Shown here: positions 56,693-64,000 of the stretch, piece by piece
Position numbering within the stretch: the stretch's first letter is position 1
Layout of the letters: the number at the start of each line of letters is the position of its first letter
Assembly (NCBI GenBank): GCA_965208905.1
Contig: OZ242365.1
Location: 1,792,001 to 1,856,000, forward strand
Direction of reading: 5' to 3'
From: Nitrosopumilaceae archaeon
GTDB taxonomy: Archaea; Thermoproteota; Nitrososphaeria; Nitrososphaerales; Nitrosopumilaceae
DNA length: 64,000 nucleotides
Program-made: the position numbers and the translations under genes
Notes under the pieces: model-generated
Told to the model about the DNA's origin: nothing
What the model saw: the letters and a program-made list of their open reading frames with translations, nothing else
The model's database searches: none

Positions 56693-57481
56693 ATGGATTG
56701 GGGATTACAGAACAGGCTTTCACGTATAATACGACAACCTAAAAACCGCGCCCTCATGTTGGCTGTAGACCATGGATACTTTTTAGGACCCACCGCGAGG
56801 CTAGAGGACGCTCAAAAAACAATTGCCCCATTACTGGAATATTGTGACTCCCTGATGTTGACCCGGGGAATACTGCGAACATCGGTCTCTCCAATTACGA
56901 ACACGCCCATGGTTCTTCGTGTATCGGGCGGTTCTAGTATAATAGGCAAAGACTTATCCCGAGAGGATATCACCGTAGATATCAAAGATGCCATACGTCT
57001 TAACGTATCTGCAATGGCAATGTCCATATTTGTGGGTTCAAAGTATGAGTATCAGACTATAGTAAATCTAGGACGACTAGTCAACATATCTTTGGAGTAT
57101 GGTATGCCGGTACTAGCAGTAACTGCCGTGGGCAAGGATATGGGTAAAGATGCGCGATATCTGTCATTGGCATGCAGGATGGCTGCCGAGCAGGGTGCTA
57201 ACATAGTAAAGACATACTATTGTGAGAACTTTGAGGAGGTTGTGGACTCTTGTCCTGTCCCAATAATAATAGCTGGAGGCAAAAAGATTCCTGAAAAAGA
57301 TGCCATGGAACTTACGTATAATGCCATTCAGGCTGGTGCTGTAGGTGTAGACATGGGCCGAAACATATGGCAATCGGACAACCCTGTACCCATGATTCGA
57401 GCCGTACAAAGTATAATCCATCAAGATAATGATGCAGATGCCGCTTGGGAACTGTACAATCAACTAATACAAGAAACATAA
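56693..57481 (+). CDS. lsrF: LsrF-like class I aldolase/thiolase
   Basis: MDWGLQNRL, LAVDHGYF.GP, VKTYY, AGGKK, GVDMGRNIWQ. Confidence 0.85.
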   Translation: MDWGLQNRLSRIIRQPKNRALMLAVDHGYFLGPTARLEDAQKTIAPLLEYCDSLMLTRGILRTSVSPITNTPMVLRVSGGSSIIGKDLSREDITVDIKDAIRLNVSAMAMSIFVGSKYEYQTIVNLGRLVNISLEYGMPVLAVTAVGKDMGKDARYLSLACRMAAEQGANIVKTYYCENFEEVVDSCPVPIIIAGGKKIPEKDAMELTYNAIQAGAVGVDMGRNIWQSDNPVPMIRAVQSIIHQDNDADAAWELYNQLIQET

Positions 57482-57759
57482 TACTCCCTAAAGAGCGACG
57501 AATTACGACTCATCAAAAAATCACCACACATTTACGGCCAGACTCTGGTATATTTTGCCTCCTAAATACTCTCCAATATACTAACTTTTTTTAGATATGG
57601 TTGGACCATTTTAGGGTATATCTGGTCTTGGCATGAGGAACTACTGAAAATTATTTTAAAAACCTGGCGGTATGATGTCTTGCGCACAACTGTGTCATCT
57701 ATGTTACCTCAATAGAGCAAAACATCCGTTATATTCTGTTTCTGTAAAAAAACATGCCA

Positions 57760-58311
57760 CTAAACCCTATGTAACTGACTCTCAGTTACTATCCAATTCA
57801 TGGGTGCATCACTTGGGTTTGATGGTATCTTTTTTACAACCTGCTTGTCCATCGTCACACATATGGTGACCGGACAGTTCTTTTGAATATATCTGTCATA
57901 ATACCCATGACCGTAGCCTAGCCTTATACCCGAGAGTGTTGCACCAACTGCCGGAACCAACAAAATATTTGGTCTTCCTGTCATGCATGTCTCTCTAGGT
58001 TCCATTATGCCAAATATTCCAGGTATTAGGTCCTTTATTCCATGTACATTTTTGAATACAATTACATTATTTTGTATTGCTGGCAAGAACACGTTACGCC
58101 CAGAACCAAGAAGATCTTGAATTATGCCACTAGTCATTACCTCACTACCTATGGCATGATACACACCAACATTGGTGATATCATCAAACAGAGAACTACC
58201 TCTTAGTATATTTCGTATACTCTCACTAACAATCTTTAACATCTCATGTGAGGTTGCATCTCGCCGTTTTAGTAACACTTGACGCAAGGATTCCCTGCTG
58301 GGATCACGCAT
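57760..58311 (-). CDS. 5-formyltetrahydrofolate cyclo-ligase
   Basis: FGIMEP, LVPAVG, RLGYGHGYYDR. Confidence 0.9.
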   Translation of the reverse strand: MRDPSRESLRQVLLKRRDATSHEMLKIVSESIRNILRGSSLFDDITNVGVYHAIGSEVMTSGIIQDLLGSGRNVFLPAIQNNVIVFKNVHGIKDLIPGIFGIMEPRETCMTGRPNILLVPAVGATLSGIRLGYGHGYYDRYIQKNCPVTICVTMDKQVVKKIPSNPSDAPMNWIVTESQLHRV

Positions 58312-59152
58312 ACTTTGCTGCCACCACAGTATTTTTTAGTAGCATGGCGACGGTCATTGGACCCACGCCGCCGGGAACCGGAGTAACATGGGATGCCTTC
58401 TGTATTATGTCGTTGTAATCCGCATCGCCAGTCAGCTTGCCGTCTATACGATTAATGGCCACATCTATAACCACAGCGTTGTCCTTTATCATGTCGGCAG
58501 TCAGCATAAACTTATCCAGATTTCCAACTCCAGTTATTATGATATCGGCCAAACTACAAATTTTTTTAATGTTTTGGGTTTTAGAGTGACAGGTGGTAAC
58601 TGTGGCATTTTTTTGCAAGAACAGATGGTATAATGGTTTGCCCACCAAGACACTTCGATTTATTATAACCACATGTTTTCCCTCTATGTTGATATTGTAA
58701 TGATCTAGCATGCGCATTATTCCAATGGGTGTGCACGCCACCAGTCTGGCACGACCTGCGGCTAACAATCCTGCACTGTGTGGCGTTAGACCATCCACGT
58801 CTTTTTTTGAGGATATTTTTGATATTATATCATTGGTGTTTATGTGATCTGGCAGTGGCATCTGCACTAATATTCCATGTATTTTATCATTGTTGTTGAC
58901 ATCTTTTATTATATCTTCGAGTTGTTCTTGTGTCACCTCTGCTGAAATTTTGTGGTCTTTTGTCTGTATGCCACATTGAGCACAAGCCATGTGCTTGTTG
59001 CGCACGTATACTGCAGATGCGGGATCATCACCTACTAAGATTGTAGCCAGACAGGGAGTTATGCCTCTTGCCTTTAGGTCATTAACGTCGGATATCACCT
59101 CTCTTTTTACTTCATTGGCTACTGCCAATCCGTCCATACGTGTGGCCATCAT
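58304..59152 (-). CDS. folD: Methylene-THF dehydrogenase/cyclohydrolase
   Basis: VGDDPAS..YV..K, HGILVQMPLP, KDVDG, TPVPGGVGPMT. Confidence 0.95.
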   Translation of the reverse strand: MMATRMDGLAVANEVKREVISDVNDLKARGITPCLATILVGDDPASAVYVRNKHMACAQCGIQTKDHKISAEVTQEQLEDIIKDVNNNDKIHGILVQMPLPDHINTNDIISKISSKKDVDGLTPHSAGLLAAGRARLVACTPIGIMRMLDHYNINIEGKHVVIINRSVLVGKPLYHLFLQKNATVTTCHSKTQNIKKICSLADIIITGVGNLDKFMLTADMIKDNAVVIDVAINRIDGKLTGDADYNDIIQKASHVTPVPGGVGPMTVAMLLKNTVVAAKYA

Positions 59153-59418
59153 CACATCGATACAGCATAAGTGACAATTAAAGCCTATGGAATTTGTTAG
59201 ATACAAATACCATGGAGTGACGACTGACCGTACCTTTTAGACTTACATCACTGAATTGTATTTTATTTGCGCCAGTATGTATGTTGTATAACGGCAGAAT
59301 TATAATGTACAAACAACAAAAAATAACGGAACTGGTGCATCTTGGTGACCTAGTGTGTGGTGGTGCGTGGGTGACCTGAGTTGAATTACTCAAATTAAAA
59401 TGAAATGAAAAGGGGGAT

Positions 59419-60663
59419 TTATGCTGTGGATTTAGTTGCGGCTTGAATGAGTGTCATCCATTTGTTGTTACCTTCAACGGTAATACCTGCGGCCTCTGCT
59501 GGGGTTATTTGATTCGGTAATCCCAAGTGGGGTTTTACAAAATTGTGATATAATCGCAGTCCAGAGATTATGCCAGAGTCTTCACGCTTAAGGCCACGGC
59601 ACACTTTCTCTCTATGTCGCAGTGTTGCTCCGTTGAATGATTCCATTTGGTTGTTATGATGTATGCCGTCAAACGCCACATCATGAATGTGTTCTGTATC
59701 TTTGTGTAGGAAGTTCTTTGCCTTGTATTGTTGCTTCCATGCATGATGGAAGTTAGCCGCTTTATCACTGATTAATGTGGTTGGGACTTTGCCTGTTACT
59801 TTTTTGGCTTGTTTAAACATGGGTGCCACATCATCATTGCCCTTGTGTTCTGCTACCATCTTGGCTATCCAGAAGCGTGTCTCACTGTCTAGCATGGCGA
59901 ATAGGTACTTTCTATTACCCTTGATTTTCAGATATAACTCATCGGTACGCCATTGTTCACCAACTTGGGGTTTAATCTTGTCAACGAAGGTTTCCATCAG
60001 TTCTGCGTATTGTTTGCCCCATCGTTGTATGGTAGTGTGTACTACTGTAATACCAACCATCTTGAGTGTATTGGCCACCTTCCGTGAGGATAATCCACTA
60101 AACAGGAGATCTACTGCTTGAGTGATATGTTCAGGTGATGCCTGCTTCTTTTCAAATCCTAGGTTTTGGATAAATCTCCTGCCACACGTCCTGCACCCGA
60201 ACTGTTGTTTGCCACGCTTAATACCCTTCTTGATAATATCAGTTGAGTCACAGAATTTGCATTTTGTAAGGTCAACAACCTTGATAGTAGTGGTAACTTC
60301 CTCTTGGACGGCTGCCCTCATTCGCTTGCTAATTTCGATTGCATGAGCGTGCTTGCATACAACACCCCTGTACATTGAATCGGGACAGGAACAAACCCAT
60401 CCTGATTCTGTATGTATCACCTCATAGACTTTACTAGAGGATTGACTTCTTACAGTATAGGTTGTATCATCTATTCTGGTTATCTGATTAGGCTTGCCTG
60501 CTATCTGCGCACCCCGTGTGATTCTAGCCGCCTGACCGGGGCTATGGTTCTTATGGGGTGATAAGATAGTAGGCTCAGAGTGCAATTTGCTCTTCATTGG
60601 GATGGTCGAGATCCCTCTGACTTTCTTTTCATCATCGCCATACTTTGTTATTGTTTTATTCAT
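59419..60663 (-). CDS. IS6/IS240-like DDE transposase with N-terminal SWIM finger and Zn ribbon
   Basis: CSCPD..CKH (SWIM), CKFC..CRTC, HTH, WRTDE / ISDK / NNQMES catalytic motifs. Confidence 0.88.
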   Translation of the reverse strand: MNKTITKYGDDEKKVRGISTIPMKSKLHSEPTILSPHKNHSPGQAARITRGAQIAGKPNQITRIDDTTYTVRSQSSSKVYEVIHTESGWVCSCPDSMYRGVVCKHAHAIEISKRMRAAVQEEVTTTIKVVDLTKCKFCDSTDIIKKGIKRGKQQFGCRTCGRRFIQNLGFEKKQASPEHITQAVDLLFSGLSSRKVANTLKMVGITVVHTTIQRWGKQYAELMETFVDKIKPQVGEQWRTDELYLKIKGNRKYLFAMLDSETRFWIAKMVAEHKGNDDVAPMFKQAKKVTGKVPTTLISDKAANFHHAWKQQYKAKNFLHKDTEHIHDVAFDGIHHNNQMESFNGATLRHREKVCRGLKREDSGIISGLRLYHNFVKPHLGLPNQITPAEAAGITVEGNNKWMTLIQAATKSTA

Positions 60664-60673
60664 GTATGTTATT

Positions 60674-60721
60674 AACGGTACGGTTATTTAACTGTTGCCA
60701 AAACCGCACGGTTTTTATATA
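60674..60721. promoter_or_regulatory. Divergent promoter region with two near-palindromic boxes (consensus AACCGTACGGTT)
   Basis: aacggtacggtt at 60674-60685 and aaccgcacggtt at 60702-60713, each abutting a TATA-like run. Confidence 0.6.
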
Positions 60722-60741
60722 GACATGTCTGTAATGTAATA

Positions 60742-60930
60742 ATGACGCGATGGAAAAAGAACGAGACAGAGTTCAGAGTCAAGATGCACCATTATAAGAA
60801 CAGGGACGGCTCCGGCACATCAAGTTGCCGGATTCCCAGTCCTATAATTAACTACATGGGAAAGCCCAACGAATTGATATTTGTGATCAATAATAAGACG
60901 GGGGAGGTAGTCGTAAGTGCAGGTGACTAA
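60742..60930 (+). CDS. Small AbrB/MazE-like DNA-binding protein
   Basis: 62 aa; CRIPSPII..MG..NELIF......VVV swapped-hairpin-like pattern; divergent from the transposase. Confidence 0.6.
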   Translation: MTRWKKNETEFRVKMHHYKNRDGSGTSSCRIPSPIINYMGKPNELIFVINNKTGEVVVSAGD

Positions 60931-61978
60931 AACACTGGCGTATGAACCAGATGCCGTATCTGACTTTGACCTGCTTATGGGCGATTCGGCAGACGTACTG
61001 ACACGATTTCCGGATAATTCGATCAACTGCACCGTCACGTCCCCACCGTACTGGGGACAACGCGAGTATGACACAAAAGACAGCATCGGACATGAAGGTT
61101 CGTTTGATGAATACATGCAACACTTGATATGCGTGTTTGACCAAGTGTATAGGGTAACGGCAAAAGATGGGTCGTTGTGGCTCAACATCGGGGACAGATA
61201 CCACAACAAGAATCTCATGGGTATGCCTTGGAGGGTCGCGCTTGCCCTGAAGGATCGGGGATGGATACTGCGCAATGACATAATTTGGAACAAGGTACGC
61301 ATGACTCAGAGCGCAAAGGACAGGCTCCGTGACCTGCACGAGTATGTGTTTCACTTCGTCAAGAATCCAAAATATTACTATAACAGGAAGGCTATACTGA
61401 TCAAGCACGACGAGAAACCCAAAAGACGTAACGGTAGACTTGTGTCAATCACAGGTACAAGTGGGATCCGTTACAGGGAACAGATACGACTGTCAACGCA
61501 TCTCTCAGACACGGAAAAACAAAACGCAGTTACGGCATTGGACAATACACTACACGACATGGCAGACGGCAAGATTGTGGATTTTCGCATGGCCATACGC
61601 GGACAACAAAGAACGTCACATGGTTCCAGTGAAAAGATCAGTGGTAGAGCAAAAGAGATAGAAAAGTACGGATTCTATGTCATATCGCAGAGTTCGGAGG
61701 GATACATGCCTACCGACTTGTGGAGTATCGTACCGGAAGACACACACCGAAAAGACATACACTGCGCGGTATATCCAACTACCCTCTTGGAGATCCCGAT
61801 AAAGGCGACATGTCCACCGGGAGGACTCGTACTAGATCCGTTTACGGGAACTGGTACTACTATAGTGGCCGCCCTCAAGCACGGCAAGCGTGGTATAGGC
61901 ATAGACGTGAGTAGCGCTTATCTTACACATGCAGAAAACAGGATAAAGACATTCCAGCAGACGGGACTAGAATGTTGA
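60917..61978 (+). CDS. Beta-class amino-DNA methyltransferase (probably m4C)
   Basis: Motif IV TSPPY precedes motif I LDPFTGTGTT; GSLWLNIGD, IIWNK, HEYVFHF, HCAVYP. Confidence 0.92.
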   Translation: MQVTKTLAYEPDAVSDFDLLMGDSADVLTRFPDNSINCTVTSPPYWGQREYDTKDSIGHEGSFDEYMQHLICVFDQVYRVTAKDGSLWLNIGDRYHNKNLMGMPWRVALALKDRGWILRNDIIWNKVRMTQSAKDRLRDLHEYVFHFVKNPKYYYNRKAILIKHDEKPKRRNGRLVSITGTSGIRYREQIRLSTHLSDTEKQNAVTALDNTLHDMADGKIVDFRMAIRGQQRTSHGSSEKISGRAKEIEKYGFYVISQSSEGYMPTDLWSIVPEDTHRKDIHCAVYPTTLLEIPIKATCPPGGLVLDPFTGTGTTIVAALKHGKRGIGIDVSSAYLTHAENRIKTFQQTGLEC

Positions 61979-62812
61979 GACCGGATCACTTTTGTTTATT
62001 TTTGCCCCTATGATTTTTTTGGCGTCCTCATAGTTGATGAGCAGGTTACCATCAACTGCAAACGAGAACAAGAGATCAACCCACCTCGTGGCCATAATCT
62101 TCTTTCTGCGTATGCGGTATCGTTTATCTTCTTCTACAAGTGAGTACAGGAAAAACATGAATGTCTCAGTAGAGTAGGACTTGATCTCATGCGTTTGTAT
62201 CTTGAATTTCGATGTGAACTGCTCCCACAACTCGTCCTGCATGACGGCTATATATGGCATCTTCCATTCGTCGAACAACTGTCCCTTGAAGATAAACTGT
62301 GGTAGAAATCCCTTGAAGGACGCAAGCGTATTTAACCCAAATGTGTAACTTTTTTTGAGCCTATCATTTAACAGGTCATCTATCGCAGTCGCAAATGATC
62401 CCGTACCCGTTGTGGCATCGGACTGTATCTCTACCCCTATGAACCTGTTTGGGTCTCTGACCGGTGTTAATATCCAGTCAAGATTACCGTAATCAAATCT
62501 CTCGTTGTCTGTCTTCTTTGCCAGTTTGACTTCGTTGCGTGCGTCAGTTTGTACCTCGGATCCCCAAATAAAGTCTCGTATTTCGTGCAGTATCTTATAA
62601 TCGTCCTCATAAAATCGCCGCGGGCAGATGATCCTGTTTCTGTCTCCCAGACATGCAGAACAGTTGCCGTATTTCGATGCAGTTCGGTTGGGCTTGTCAC
62701 ACTGGACGATGCGCCTGTCAAACGGACACCCATAATCGCGGTTGCGAAAGCGGGCCTTGGCCACGTCTGAATCGAATTTTTCGCCAAACGCCTCCAACTG
62801 TCTATTTGTCAT
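61967..62812 (-). CDS. NotI-family restriction endonuclease
   Basis: CPF...CDKP...GNCS...IICPRRF Cys4 pattern; GNLD..GVEIQ catalytic core; convergent with the MTase. Confidence 0.82.
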   Translation of the reverse strand: MTNRQLEAFGEKFDSDVAKARFRNRDYGCPFDRRIVQCDKPNRTASKYGNCSACLGDRNRIICPRRFYEDDYKILHEIRDFIWGSEVQTDARNEVKLAKKTDNERFDYGNLDWILTPVRDPNRFIGVEIQSDATTGTGSFATAIDDLLNDRLKKSYTFGLNTLASFKGFLPQFIFKGQLFDEWKMPYIAVMQDELWEQFTSKFKIQTHEIKSYSTETFMFFLYSLVEEDKRYRIRRKKIMATRWVDLLFSFAVDGNLLINYEDAKKIIGAKINKSDPVSTF

Positions 62813-62929
62813 GAAATATGTTGACTGACTTGTTTATAATATATCTTGAGAGTGTGTGATATAATTCCCGGGGATTCCTAGGTCACCCACGCACCACCGT
62901 ACAACAGGTCACCAAGATGCACCAGTTCC

Positions 62930-63371
62930 GTCCGTTGGCAGGGTTCATATCTATGTGTTTGATCCAAACTCTGTCGACCCGCTCCAGTTCGGCACGAATA
63001 TGGTCTATTGTCATATCTGCCTCAGTCAGGGTCAGGGCGGTCTGGCCCACGTATGGCATACCTGCTCCATGCGCCACTATCTTTAGGGTGGCGGACTCTA
63101 CCACAAACGGAAATATTGTATTGGGGTCTTCTGATCCAACCGATGTGATCACATCAAACGCACCAGTACCCTGCTCCATATACAGTGTAAGTGTCTTGTT
63201 CACTTCTGCGTGAATTTGAGACTCTATGCTGCTTAGGTCATATCTAGTACGTTCCTGTGCAGCCACATCGGTCGTCAGTGCGGGAAGCGTTAGCGCTACG
63301 AGCACAACCAGCATCATTACAAAAACAAACGACTGTTCACCGGATATATTTAACAAGTCCAGATTTCTCAT
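62930..63371 (-). pseudogene. Secreted Cache-like domain protein truncated by the transposon
   Basis: Signal peptide, FPFVV....IVAHG, W..H...NPANG; reading frame runs into the TIR and stops. Confidence 0.7.
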
Positions 63372-63412
63372 GTCACTGTAGCATAAATCTTTTTGTGTAC
63401 AGGATTCGCTTT

Positions 63413-64000
63413 TCTGTTGTACAAAAATTAGGTTCGACTAAGTTCTGGTTGCAAGCAAAGGAATACTTCACGCTTTATCGATCACGAAAAAAGATGAAAA
63501 TGACAAAGTTGACGGATAAACAGATACGATACGCCATAAGGGAACGTGGTAAGGGTAAGACGCTTGTTGACATAGCAGACGATATAGGTGTAACACCACA
63601 ACATGTAGGACGACTATGTGCAGAGTTTACAAGAACAGGACAGATACACGTGCAACAAAAGCCAGGCCGGCCAGTCCACCCACCACCGTCGGCAGAGGAG
63701 GTCCGAACCGTGTTGAACAAACATGCAGAGGAAGATGTAGGCATCATACGAACAGCAAGGAGGGTCAGAAAAGACAATCCGAATATAAGCTATGCCACCA
63801 TATATCGCATAATGAAAGAACATGGACTAGTCACATCATCTGTAGCAAAATCCAAAAAAAGAAAATACGTTAGGTATGAGCGCAAATATTCCAATGCCAT
63901 GTGGCATGTTGACTGGCATATAATGAAGGATCAACGCTTTGCAGGGCTCAACCTAGTCACATTTCTAGATGATTCATCAAGGTGTATAACGGGTGCTGCC
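63413..64000 (+). mobile_element. IS481-family element running off the window; transposase ORF open from 63494 to the end
   Basis: Left end tctgttgtacaaaaattaggttcgac resembles the 9633 copy; RYERKYSNAMWHVDW, FLDDSSR. Confidence 0.88.

Follow-up and report, generated by a model that had tools for sequence, protein, structure and literature searches.

A recently active archaeal unit transposon with an IS6-type transposase and a type II restriction-modification gene pair as cargo

Transposons of the Tn3 family and Tn7-like elements combine one transposition module with exchangeable passenger genes, often for defence, between inverted ends. In bacterial genetics, DNA transposons with such cargo are thoroughly familiar. 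For archaea, passenger-carrying DNA transposons had not been detected according to Krupovic et al. (2019, PMC6563490), who described thaumarchaeal insertion sequences (ISs) as one- or two-gene elements, and a 2026 survey of archaeal ISs does not treat cargo (PMC13343696). We have analysed a 3602-bp segment in the genome of a sponge-associated ammonia-oxidising archaeon of the Nitrosopumilaceae, in which a transposase gene, a small gene and a restriction-modification (R-M) gene pair lie between long inverted repeats. The segment occupies positions 59328-62929 of a 64,000-nucleotide (nt) stretch of DNA, referred to as the window, which corresponds to genome positions 1792001-1856000 of a single 2.21-Mb contig. 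Coordinates are those of the window unless marked as genome positions.

Two groups of described elements bear on this locus. ISs of the IS6/IS26 family are one-gene elements of 0.7-0.9 kb, up to ~1.7 kb, with transposases of 213-254 amino acids (aa) and terminal repeats of 14-20 nt, 15-20 bp in the 2021 review (PMC7986276, Varani et al. 2021; PMC6807381) that start with GG and carry G at position 7 (PMC6807381). The passages available of the 2021 review give a single member with one passenger gene, ISDsp3 (PMC7986276). In clostridial clades (h and i of Varani et al. 2021; VII and VIII of Harmer & Hall 2019) the transposases have zinc-finger extensions, with a further domain in clade i that takes them to ~450 aa (PMC7986276), and it has been argued that archaeal and long clostridial elements lie outside IS6/IS26 proper (PMC6807381, Harmer & Hall 2019). 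The second group comprises bacterial R-M units that lie within imperfect long inverted repeats and are inserted with an 8-bp duplication; one of these units also contains a transposase-like gene, and according to the passages available no archaeal case survived the screen by which they were found (Furuta, Abe & Kobayashi 2010, PMC2853133).

The 3602-bp segment is a recently active unit transposon, and very probably an autonomous one that belongs to a Nitrosopumilaceae family related to IS6. A second 3602-bp copy (copy B), 100% identical to that in the window (copy A), lies 0.51 Mb away at genome 1337692-1341293, with identity ending at the repeat tips. The true ends of the element were placed at 59328 and 62929 because identity to the second copy begins and stops precisely there. 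A repeat search of the region 57000-64000 returned a single long inverted pair, 59326-59377 / 62880-62931 (52 nt, 92%; blastn E ~1e-16), while the runner-up within the same 7-kb region measured 22 nt only. The element itself has 50-nt inverted ends identical at 46/50 positions (4 mismatches), and an earlier note on this DNA, which had described 50-bp terminal inverted repeats around four apparently intact genes, was confirmed in this by the repeat search and the genome comparison. Both tips read GGAACTG, and the GG start and the G at position 7 are those of IS6-type ends. The left repeat is built from two sub-repeats of ~21-25 nt, each ending GGTGACCT. The ends, the transposase gene and the insertion sites are placed as follows.

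59320..59327: left flank 8-mer AAAATAAC, target duplication 'a', with its twin to the right of the other genomic copy
59328..59377, + strand: left terminal inverted repeat, on the transposase-stop side, 50 nt, tip GGAACTG
59419-60663, - strand: transposase, 414 aa, with a SWIM zinc finger, a 4-Cys zinc ribbon, an HTH (helix-turn-helix) and an IS6/IS240-type DDE domain
62880..62929, - strand: right terminal inverted repeat, 50 nt, 46/50 against the left repeat
62930..62937: right flank 8-mer GTCCGTTG, target duplication 'b', with its twin to the left of the other genomic copy
62932..63371, - strand: N-terminal piece (146-162 aa) of a split secreted repeat-protein gene, the 644-aa remainder of which is at genome 1337690-1335756, left of copy B

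The flanks are exchanged between the two copies, copy A being bordered a|b and copy B b|a. Because the flank 8-mers are swapped in this way, AAAATAAC and GTCCGTTG are target duplications whose twins stand at different loci. Site 'a', the folD intergenic site, is empty in the sister genome G005, which has one AAAATAAC on which both flanks overlap; the flank proteins in G005 are 98-100% identical, and folD there adjoins the gene found to the right of copy B. A search of G005 did not find the 3602-bp element, its best hit (71%) being confined to the transposase part. At site 'b', placing the copy-B left flank against the copy-A right flank restores one long minus-strand frame. In four relatives the 644-aa and 146-aa pieces lie in one open reading frame (ORF), at most 2 codons apart; since these are paralogue-level matches, with 42-63% identity, they are by themselves supportive only.

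Further evidence on the unoccupied sites comes from bridging Logan contigs, and not from missing cover of the element interior on its own, in independent sponge metagenome runs from another study (X1 and X2). In both, the copy-A left flank runs straight into the copy-B right flank, and the copy-B left flank is directly joined to the copy-A right flank; sites 'a' and 'b' are therefore both empty in those populations. Contigs of the likely source runs, X21 and X24, confirm every assembly junction. The earlier note had read the locus as a single-transposase unit transposon and not a two-copy composite, with the distal repeat as a working end. Both points are upheld by identical 3602-bp copies that end at the repeat tips and by the empty sites, which were sought and found for 'a' in G005 and for 'a' and 'b' in X1 and X2. 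The structure of a two-IS composite is also absent, there being a single transposase gene and, at the right end, a bare 50-nt repeat.

One sequence within the element resembles its ends, and is the sole internal match to them.

60780..60791: inner 12-mer, identical to the terminal-repeat core, in right-end orientation, without the tip

This 12-mer, which agrees with the end-repeat core at 12/12 positions, is found 117 nt upstream of where the transposase gene starts, and it would suit an ordinary IS of ~1.45 kb made up of the transposase gene and an inner end upstream of it, in which case the distal repeat would be a relic and the R-M genes trapped neighbours. Such a short IS has parallels. 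A paralogue in this genome (L041) has a second, inner pair of inverted repeats that encloses its transposase gene within 1633 bp, and a cargo-free relative of 1295 bp in another genome (L060) has 54-nt ends and an 8/8 duplication. The inner 12-mer, however, lacks the tip bases, and a match of 12 nt was reached in 11/500 shuffles; the transposase frame of L060 is broken and its SWIM part missing; and 15/15 insertions with 8/8 duplications elsewhere measure at least 2.8 kb. Moreover, the duplicated unit here extends over 3602 bp to the outer tips, each outer junction lies directly against an 8-bp target copy, and the two sites are seen empty. We consider a short IS with trapped neighbours very improbable. 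Just upstream of the transposase gene, where the earlier note had allowed that a second inverted repeat might lie, there is only this tipless match, which is possibly a relic inner end, a binding site or chance.

The transposase matches PF13610 (DDE_Tnp_IS240) with 55 bits (cut-off 27) and the IS6 profile NF033587 with E 4e-29 over profile positions 1-202, the whole of the profile, and residues 135-166 form an IS1/IS1595-type zinc-binding domain. Across 14/14 aligned family transposases there is no variation in the DDE triad (D241/D300/E341), in the SWIM residues (C91/C93/C103/H105) or among the cysteines of the zinc ribbon (C135/C138/C157/C160). Profiles and alignment agree with the SWIM, zinc-ribbon and DDE parts named in the earlier note. 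A protein search returned 1229 homologues at E <=1e-10, most of them unnamed; two carry the names 'IS1/IS6 family transposase' and 'DDE-type integrase/transposase/recombinase'. Protein Data Bank (PDB) sequence searches with the transposase and with the endonuclease described below gave chance-level rows only.

With the IS6/IS26 family the element shares a DDE transposase that matches PF13610 and, over its full length, the NF033587 profile, tips with GG and G7, an 8-bp target duplication (PMC6807381, PMC7986276) and an exchange of flanks between copies as in intramolecular replicative events (PMC7986276). It differs from IS6/IS26 in its length (3.6 kb, and 2.8-12 kb across its own family, against the 0.7-0.9 kb, up to ~1.7 kb, of IS6), in having four genes where IS6 has one, in ends with two sub-repeats that measure 40-87 nt across its family where those of IS6 have 14-20 nt, and in a transposase of 414 aa whose SWIM and zinc-ribbon extensions take it beyond the 213-254 aa of IS6 (PMC7986276). 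The N-terminal zinc-finger extension is a feature in common with the clostridial IS6-like elements, which, compared by description and not by alignment, differ in being bacterial, 1.2-1.8 kb long and cargo-free. A transposition module joined to exchangeable passenger genes between inverted ends is likewise the plan of Tn3 and Tn7-like unit transposons. Unlike those, the present element has no Tn3-type transposase or resolvase and no TnsABC, makes an 8-bp and not a 5-bp duplication, and resides in an archaeal host.

The R-M genes between long inverted repeats and the 8-bp duplication are also what the element has in common with the units of Furuta et al. (PMC2853133), for which, in the passages available, no clear working transposase accompanies bacterial R-M complexes with long inverted repeats and short duplications. 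This precedent would allow the two copies to have arisen by segmental duplication or R-M-driven mobility, with the transposase gene a bystander. Here, however, the transposase gene is unbroken and the DDE triad of its product invariant, and the 8-bp duplication and the GG/G7 tips fit its family. R-M-free elements with the same transposase and end type (carrying Fic, protease or surface-protein genes) also have 8/8 duplications. Each unit of Furuta et al. is an isolated case from bacteria to which no working transposase was assigned, whereas the unit transposon described here has a dedicated transposase that is intact, occurs in several identical copies and belongs to a family with changing cargo. 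We give a bystander transposase even less credence than the short IS.

The remaining genes of the element lie on the transposase-start side.

60664..60741: divergent intergenic region, 78 bp, separating the transposase gene from the small ORF/methyltransferase genes
60742-60930, + strand: 62-aa small protein, putatively AbrB-like; no Pfam match; overlaps the methyltransferase start by 14 nt
60917-61978, + strand: type II DNA methyltransferase, N6/N4 class, 353 aa; PF01555 E 5e-48, PADLOC MTase_II 9e-72
61967-62812, - strand: NotI-family type II restriction endonuclease, 281 aa; PF12183 NotI, PADLOC REase_II

The 78-bp divergent region presumably holds the promoters. The methyltransferase translation shows an SPPY motif, and the position of this motif IV ahead of motif I suggests an enzyme that makes N4-methylcytosine (m4C). 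The endonuclease gene is convergent with that of the methyltransferase, with a 12-nt overlap, and its product scores 26.2 bits against PF12183 (cut-off 22) and 4e-9 against REase_II of PADLOC. Its 63 homologues are bacterial or from other archaea and include one with the name NotI family restriction endonuclease; in most, the length is 281-289 aa and the alignment takes in 94-100% of the query, while 8 are shorter pieces. The cargo genes look whole because most endonuclease homologues match in length. Adjacent full-length methyltransferase and endonuclease genes, both with profile matches, are thus present as in a type II R-M system, and the complete R-M pair of the earlier note stands. A search of 30 relatives did not find the endonuclease (0/30). 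On its predicted functions, the pair may defend against foreign DNA and, through R-M addiction as put forward in the earlier note, may penalise loss of the element.

The element has relatives within its own genome. The transposase has 13 matches at E <=1e-60, and besides the two identical copies 11 paralogous transposase loci were annotated, with 52-82% identity. Methyltransferase or restriction genes lie on the transposase-start side at 11/11 of these loci. They include a D12 methyltransferase with a HaeIII-family endonuclease, methyltransferase-HNH fusions, an Eco57I-like type IIG enzyme, type ISP and type III systems and MmeI fragments; SIR2, Panacea and PDC-M32 genes are found as further cargo. 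At eight of the 11 loci, long inverted repeats of 38-61 nt, with two sub-repeats each, form the boundaries of a span of 3.4-15.8 kb. Perfect 8/8 duplications were found at three of these eight (3360, 8983 and 3688 bp), and one of the eight was outside the duplication test.

Two of the paralogues have features of their own. The locus with the inner pair mentioned above (L041; genome 1100773-1109752, 8983 bp) has a perfect 8-bp outer duplication, and its inner inverted pair, ATTTCCACTCCG, spans 1633 bp; the motif ATTTCCACTCCG also flanks the transposase genes of two other loci (L044 and L045). The nested ends of L041 possibly illustrate the extension of a short IS into a transposon. A 6.4-kb paralogue (L043) has both PDC-M32 candidate defence genes, at L043 5082-6607 or genome 1372983-1374507 (PADLOC E 2e-111 and 5e-47), and also carries a methyltransferase-HNH fusion. 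Elsewhere in the genome, solitary right-end-like sequences with no transposase nearby occur at 741917-741960 (95%) and 1938415-1938464 (82%), and are probably relics of lost copies. That at 741917-741960 is also a loose end among the source-run contigs.

A profile-based scan of one genome per species gave 79 loci, all in Nitrosopumilaceae or other Nitrososphaerota bar one weak Thermoplasmatales match. The 53 loci with near-full transposase matches were examined, and the 26 at which the match was short or cut by a contig end were excluded. An inverted pair was present at 31/53 loci and no repeat pair was within reach at the other 22; three of the 31 pairs (487, 590 and 1398 nt) are read, by their length, as copies of other repeated elements and not as ends. 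Perfect 8-bp duplications were found at 15/53 loci, representing 14 distinct elements of 2831-12099 bp, none of them below 2.8 kb. The terminal repeats of the relatives measure 26-87 nt, mostly 48-87, and have tips such as GGTTCTG, GGGACTG and GGCTCTG.

Cargo varies among these 14 elements. Eight carry methyltransferase or R-M genes, for example D12 with R.HinP1I, MT-A70 with MunI, or an EcoRI-type methyltransferase with GmrSD-HNH. Among the remaining six, one element each has a Panacea-domain gene, Fic together with a receiver domain, a protease of the matrixin type, a cyclase-like gene, surface proteins, and unknowns. A relative of 10.26 kb is present twice in G005 (L088 1883-12143 and L090 1953-12217); the copies are 99.96% identical, each has its own perfect 8-bp duplication, and the cargo consists of two large surface Ig-like proteins and a nested IS, with no R-M genes. 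A third G005 locus (L089) matches only the first 3803 bp of this element. Homologues with the same kind of ends and different cargo, which the earlier note had expected of such a family, thus exist in this and in other genomes. Its further proposal of an exchangeable defence cargo holds in part: the cargo is exchangeable and mostly R-M, but it is not confined to defence, as the surface proteins, protease and Fic show.

The small protein was both AbrB-like and a regulator in the earlier description. Two paralogous elements have small ORFs at the equivalent position, with 47% and 41% identity to it. A HMMER profile search of 1.84 billion representatives returned 74 relatives, mostly of 56-65 aa and 17 of them at E <=1e-10, whereas a word-index search retrieved only the protein itself. 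None of 48 aligned members of the small-protein family (0/48) matched a Pfam model at E <=0.01; only the paralogue at L039 gives PF04014, with E 1e-4, under the cut-off. An AlphaFold model of the 62-aa protein (pLDDT 91.8) has the order beta-beta-alpha-beta-beta. In a structure comparison, just 11 of 48,161 chains reached Z 2, the top match being SpoVT with a low Z of 4.2 (root-mean-square deviation 1.9 over 44 residues). By entry title, 10 of the 11 are read as AbrB, MazE, SpoVT, VapB or related swapped-hairpin proteins; among the chains, we take 5itj (histone-like), 7xi6 (C56) and 1n0e (UPF0040) to belong to the swapped-hairpin fold class. Foldseek against the PDB returned nothing at E <=0.001, and an Atlas search gave only leads below 0.9. 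'AbrB-like' is a fair but weakly scored reading of the predicted model: the fold order and SpoVT as best match speak for it, and the lack of a PF04014 match and the low Z against it.

The small-protein gene is not a general backbone part, as had been proposed for it as 'regulator', since it is present in only 3 of ~11 element types in the genome. Six more genes of this kind ('MTRWKK...'), two of them in tandem, have neither a transposase of this family nor an R-M gene nearby (genome 713474, 1007054, 1191520, 1472891, 1473152 and 1946973); their neighbours are housekeeping, TnpB, IS630 and SMC genes. We rejected the protein as a dedicated transposon or R-M component on account of these six stand-alone copies in unrelated contexts. 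The small ORF of the G005 element is unrelated to it.

The exchanged flanks, together with a duplicated piece of the right end, bear on how the two copies arose.

62579..62929: duplicated end stretch, 351 bp, with a second 100% identical copy directly after the copy-B right tip

The order at the copy-B locus is full copy, 351-bp end fragment of a third copy, 'a' duplication; here the right tip of the transposon thus meets a position within another copy's endonuclease gene. In contigs of the likely source runs the 351-nt end piece is a unitig at raised depth. In our model, one copy would first have resided in the folD intergenic site 'a' and one in the secreted-protein gene 'b'. The 'b' copy would then have transposed replicatively into the endonuclease gene of the 'a' copy, exchanging flanks. 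One product (b-flank, full copy, 351-bp end fragment, a-flank) would be the arrangement at the copy-B locus; the other (a-flank, partial copy, full copy, b-flank) would have yielded the clean window copy once recombination had collapsed the tandem. In intramolecular replicative events of IS6 elements, each copy retains one old and one new flank (PMC7986276). The transposase would bind the two sub-repeats in each end and, by analogy with IS26, the whole segment would move by a replicative, cointegrate-forming route, with host recombination resolving the products. We give this route an even chance.

It is also possible, though we think it rather less probable, that the unit transposon moves by cut-and-paste or simple insertion, and that the flank swap and the 351-bp fragment arose when homologous recombination followed upon a nested insertion. 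Single insertions with direct 8-bp duplications of the ordinary kind make up most of the family, and many identical repeats are able to recombine, such as an IS with 8 copies identical over 588 bp; by our own derivation, recombination between a nested copy and a second copy gives both junctions exactly. This path, however, takes one event more than the replicative route, and IS26, in the passages available, forms cointegrates and does not move as a discrete unit (PMC6807381, PMC7986276). Ordinary duplications are no argument against replication, because in IS26 they arise after resolution by recombination.

Several observations weigh against an active, replicating unit transposon of the IS6 type that is maintained for its cargo. 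The NF033587 score of the transposase, 101.7 bits, is under the NCBI curated cut-off of 125, and ends of 50 nt with two sub-repeats are unlike the 14-20-nt ends of IS6 (PMC7986276, PMC6807381). The activities of the transposase, methyltransferase and endonuclease are all predictions from sequence. Four of the eight repeat-bounded paralogues (E4, E5, E11 and E12) are without a direct duplication, the flanks agreeing at no more than 5/8 positions, and splits or truncations affect many of the paralogous R-M cargoes, which speaks against a strong and lasting selection for cargo. The replicative route is not proven, because nested insertion with homologous recombination yields the same junctions. 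In addition, the two copies are in direct orientation, and on one circular chromosome this needs a further rearrangement beyond one replicative or recombination event; excision and rejoining of cognate flanks would therefore give circles of 0.51 and 1.70 Mb. No contig spans the 3.6-kb element, and the flank pairing accordingly rests on the original assembly. If the flanks are mis-paired, both copies would have ordinary duplications and the genome would be two circles of 0.51 and 1.70 Mb. Cumulative GC (guanine-cytosine) skew is noisy, with no break at 1.34 Mb.

Possible answers to the direct orientation are a further rearrangement, fusion of two replicons as a cointegrate, or mis-pairing in the assembly. 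The first is plausible given many identical ISs and poor local synteny among relatives. As regards a separate 0.51-Mb replicon, contig C2 of G005 is just 88.6 kb, and gene order around the site differs among relatives.

Two further sequences lie beyond the right end of the element. The split gene of site 'b' is one of a very large set of paralogues that encode secreted proteins with ~120-aa repeats, with 23-24 matches in this genome, up to 48 in relatives of the same genus, and matches in just 2 of 21 other genera searched. At 63412-64000, running off the window end, lies a different IS, of which 588 bp are 100% identical at seven other genomic places. The ORF at 63257-64000 (+ strand) gives weak HTH_21 and HTH_32 rows below the cut-offs, and has an N-terminal pattern as in rve-type transposases of other loci.

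The unit transposon belongs to a large family in which such cargo travels as single units and which seems not to have been published so far. Our literature searches, whose reach did not include supplements and ISfinder, found no published description of it, in agreement with the earlier note, which knew of no described family with this architecture; literature on IS1595 passenger genes gave nothing useful. A wider claim, to which we assign a little less than an even chance, is that this undescribed Nitrosopumilaceae family comprises the first passenger-carrying DDE unit transposons to be documented in archaea, that it is the main vehicle of R-M, defence, toxin and surface-protein genes in sponge-associated ammonia oxidisers, and that a replicative jump re-joined the present chromosome around a 0.51-Mb segment. 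Sponge Thaumarchaeota are enriched in transposases and in R-M systems, two enrichments that were reported separately and, in the passages available, were not linked (Haber et al., PMC7848895). If the wider claim is true, the family would be the physical link between them and would explain why sponge symbionts are enriched in both (PMC7848895). It would also show one way for an insertion sequence to grow into a transposon, and the compact archaeal transposase and its pair of ends could be tried as a genetic tool. For the organisms themselves, it would provide a mechanism for defence-gene flux in globally important nitrifiers.

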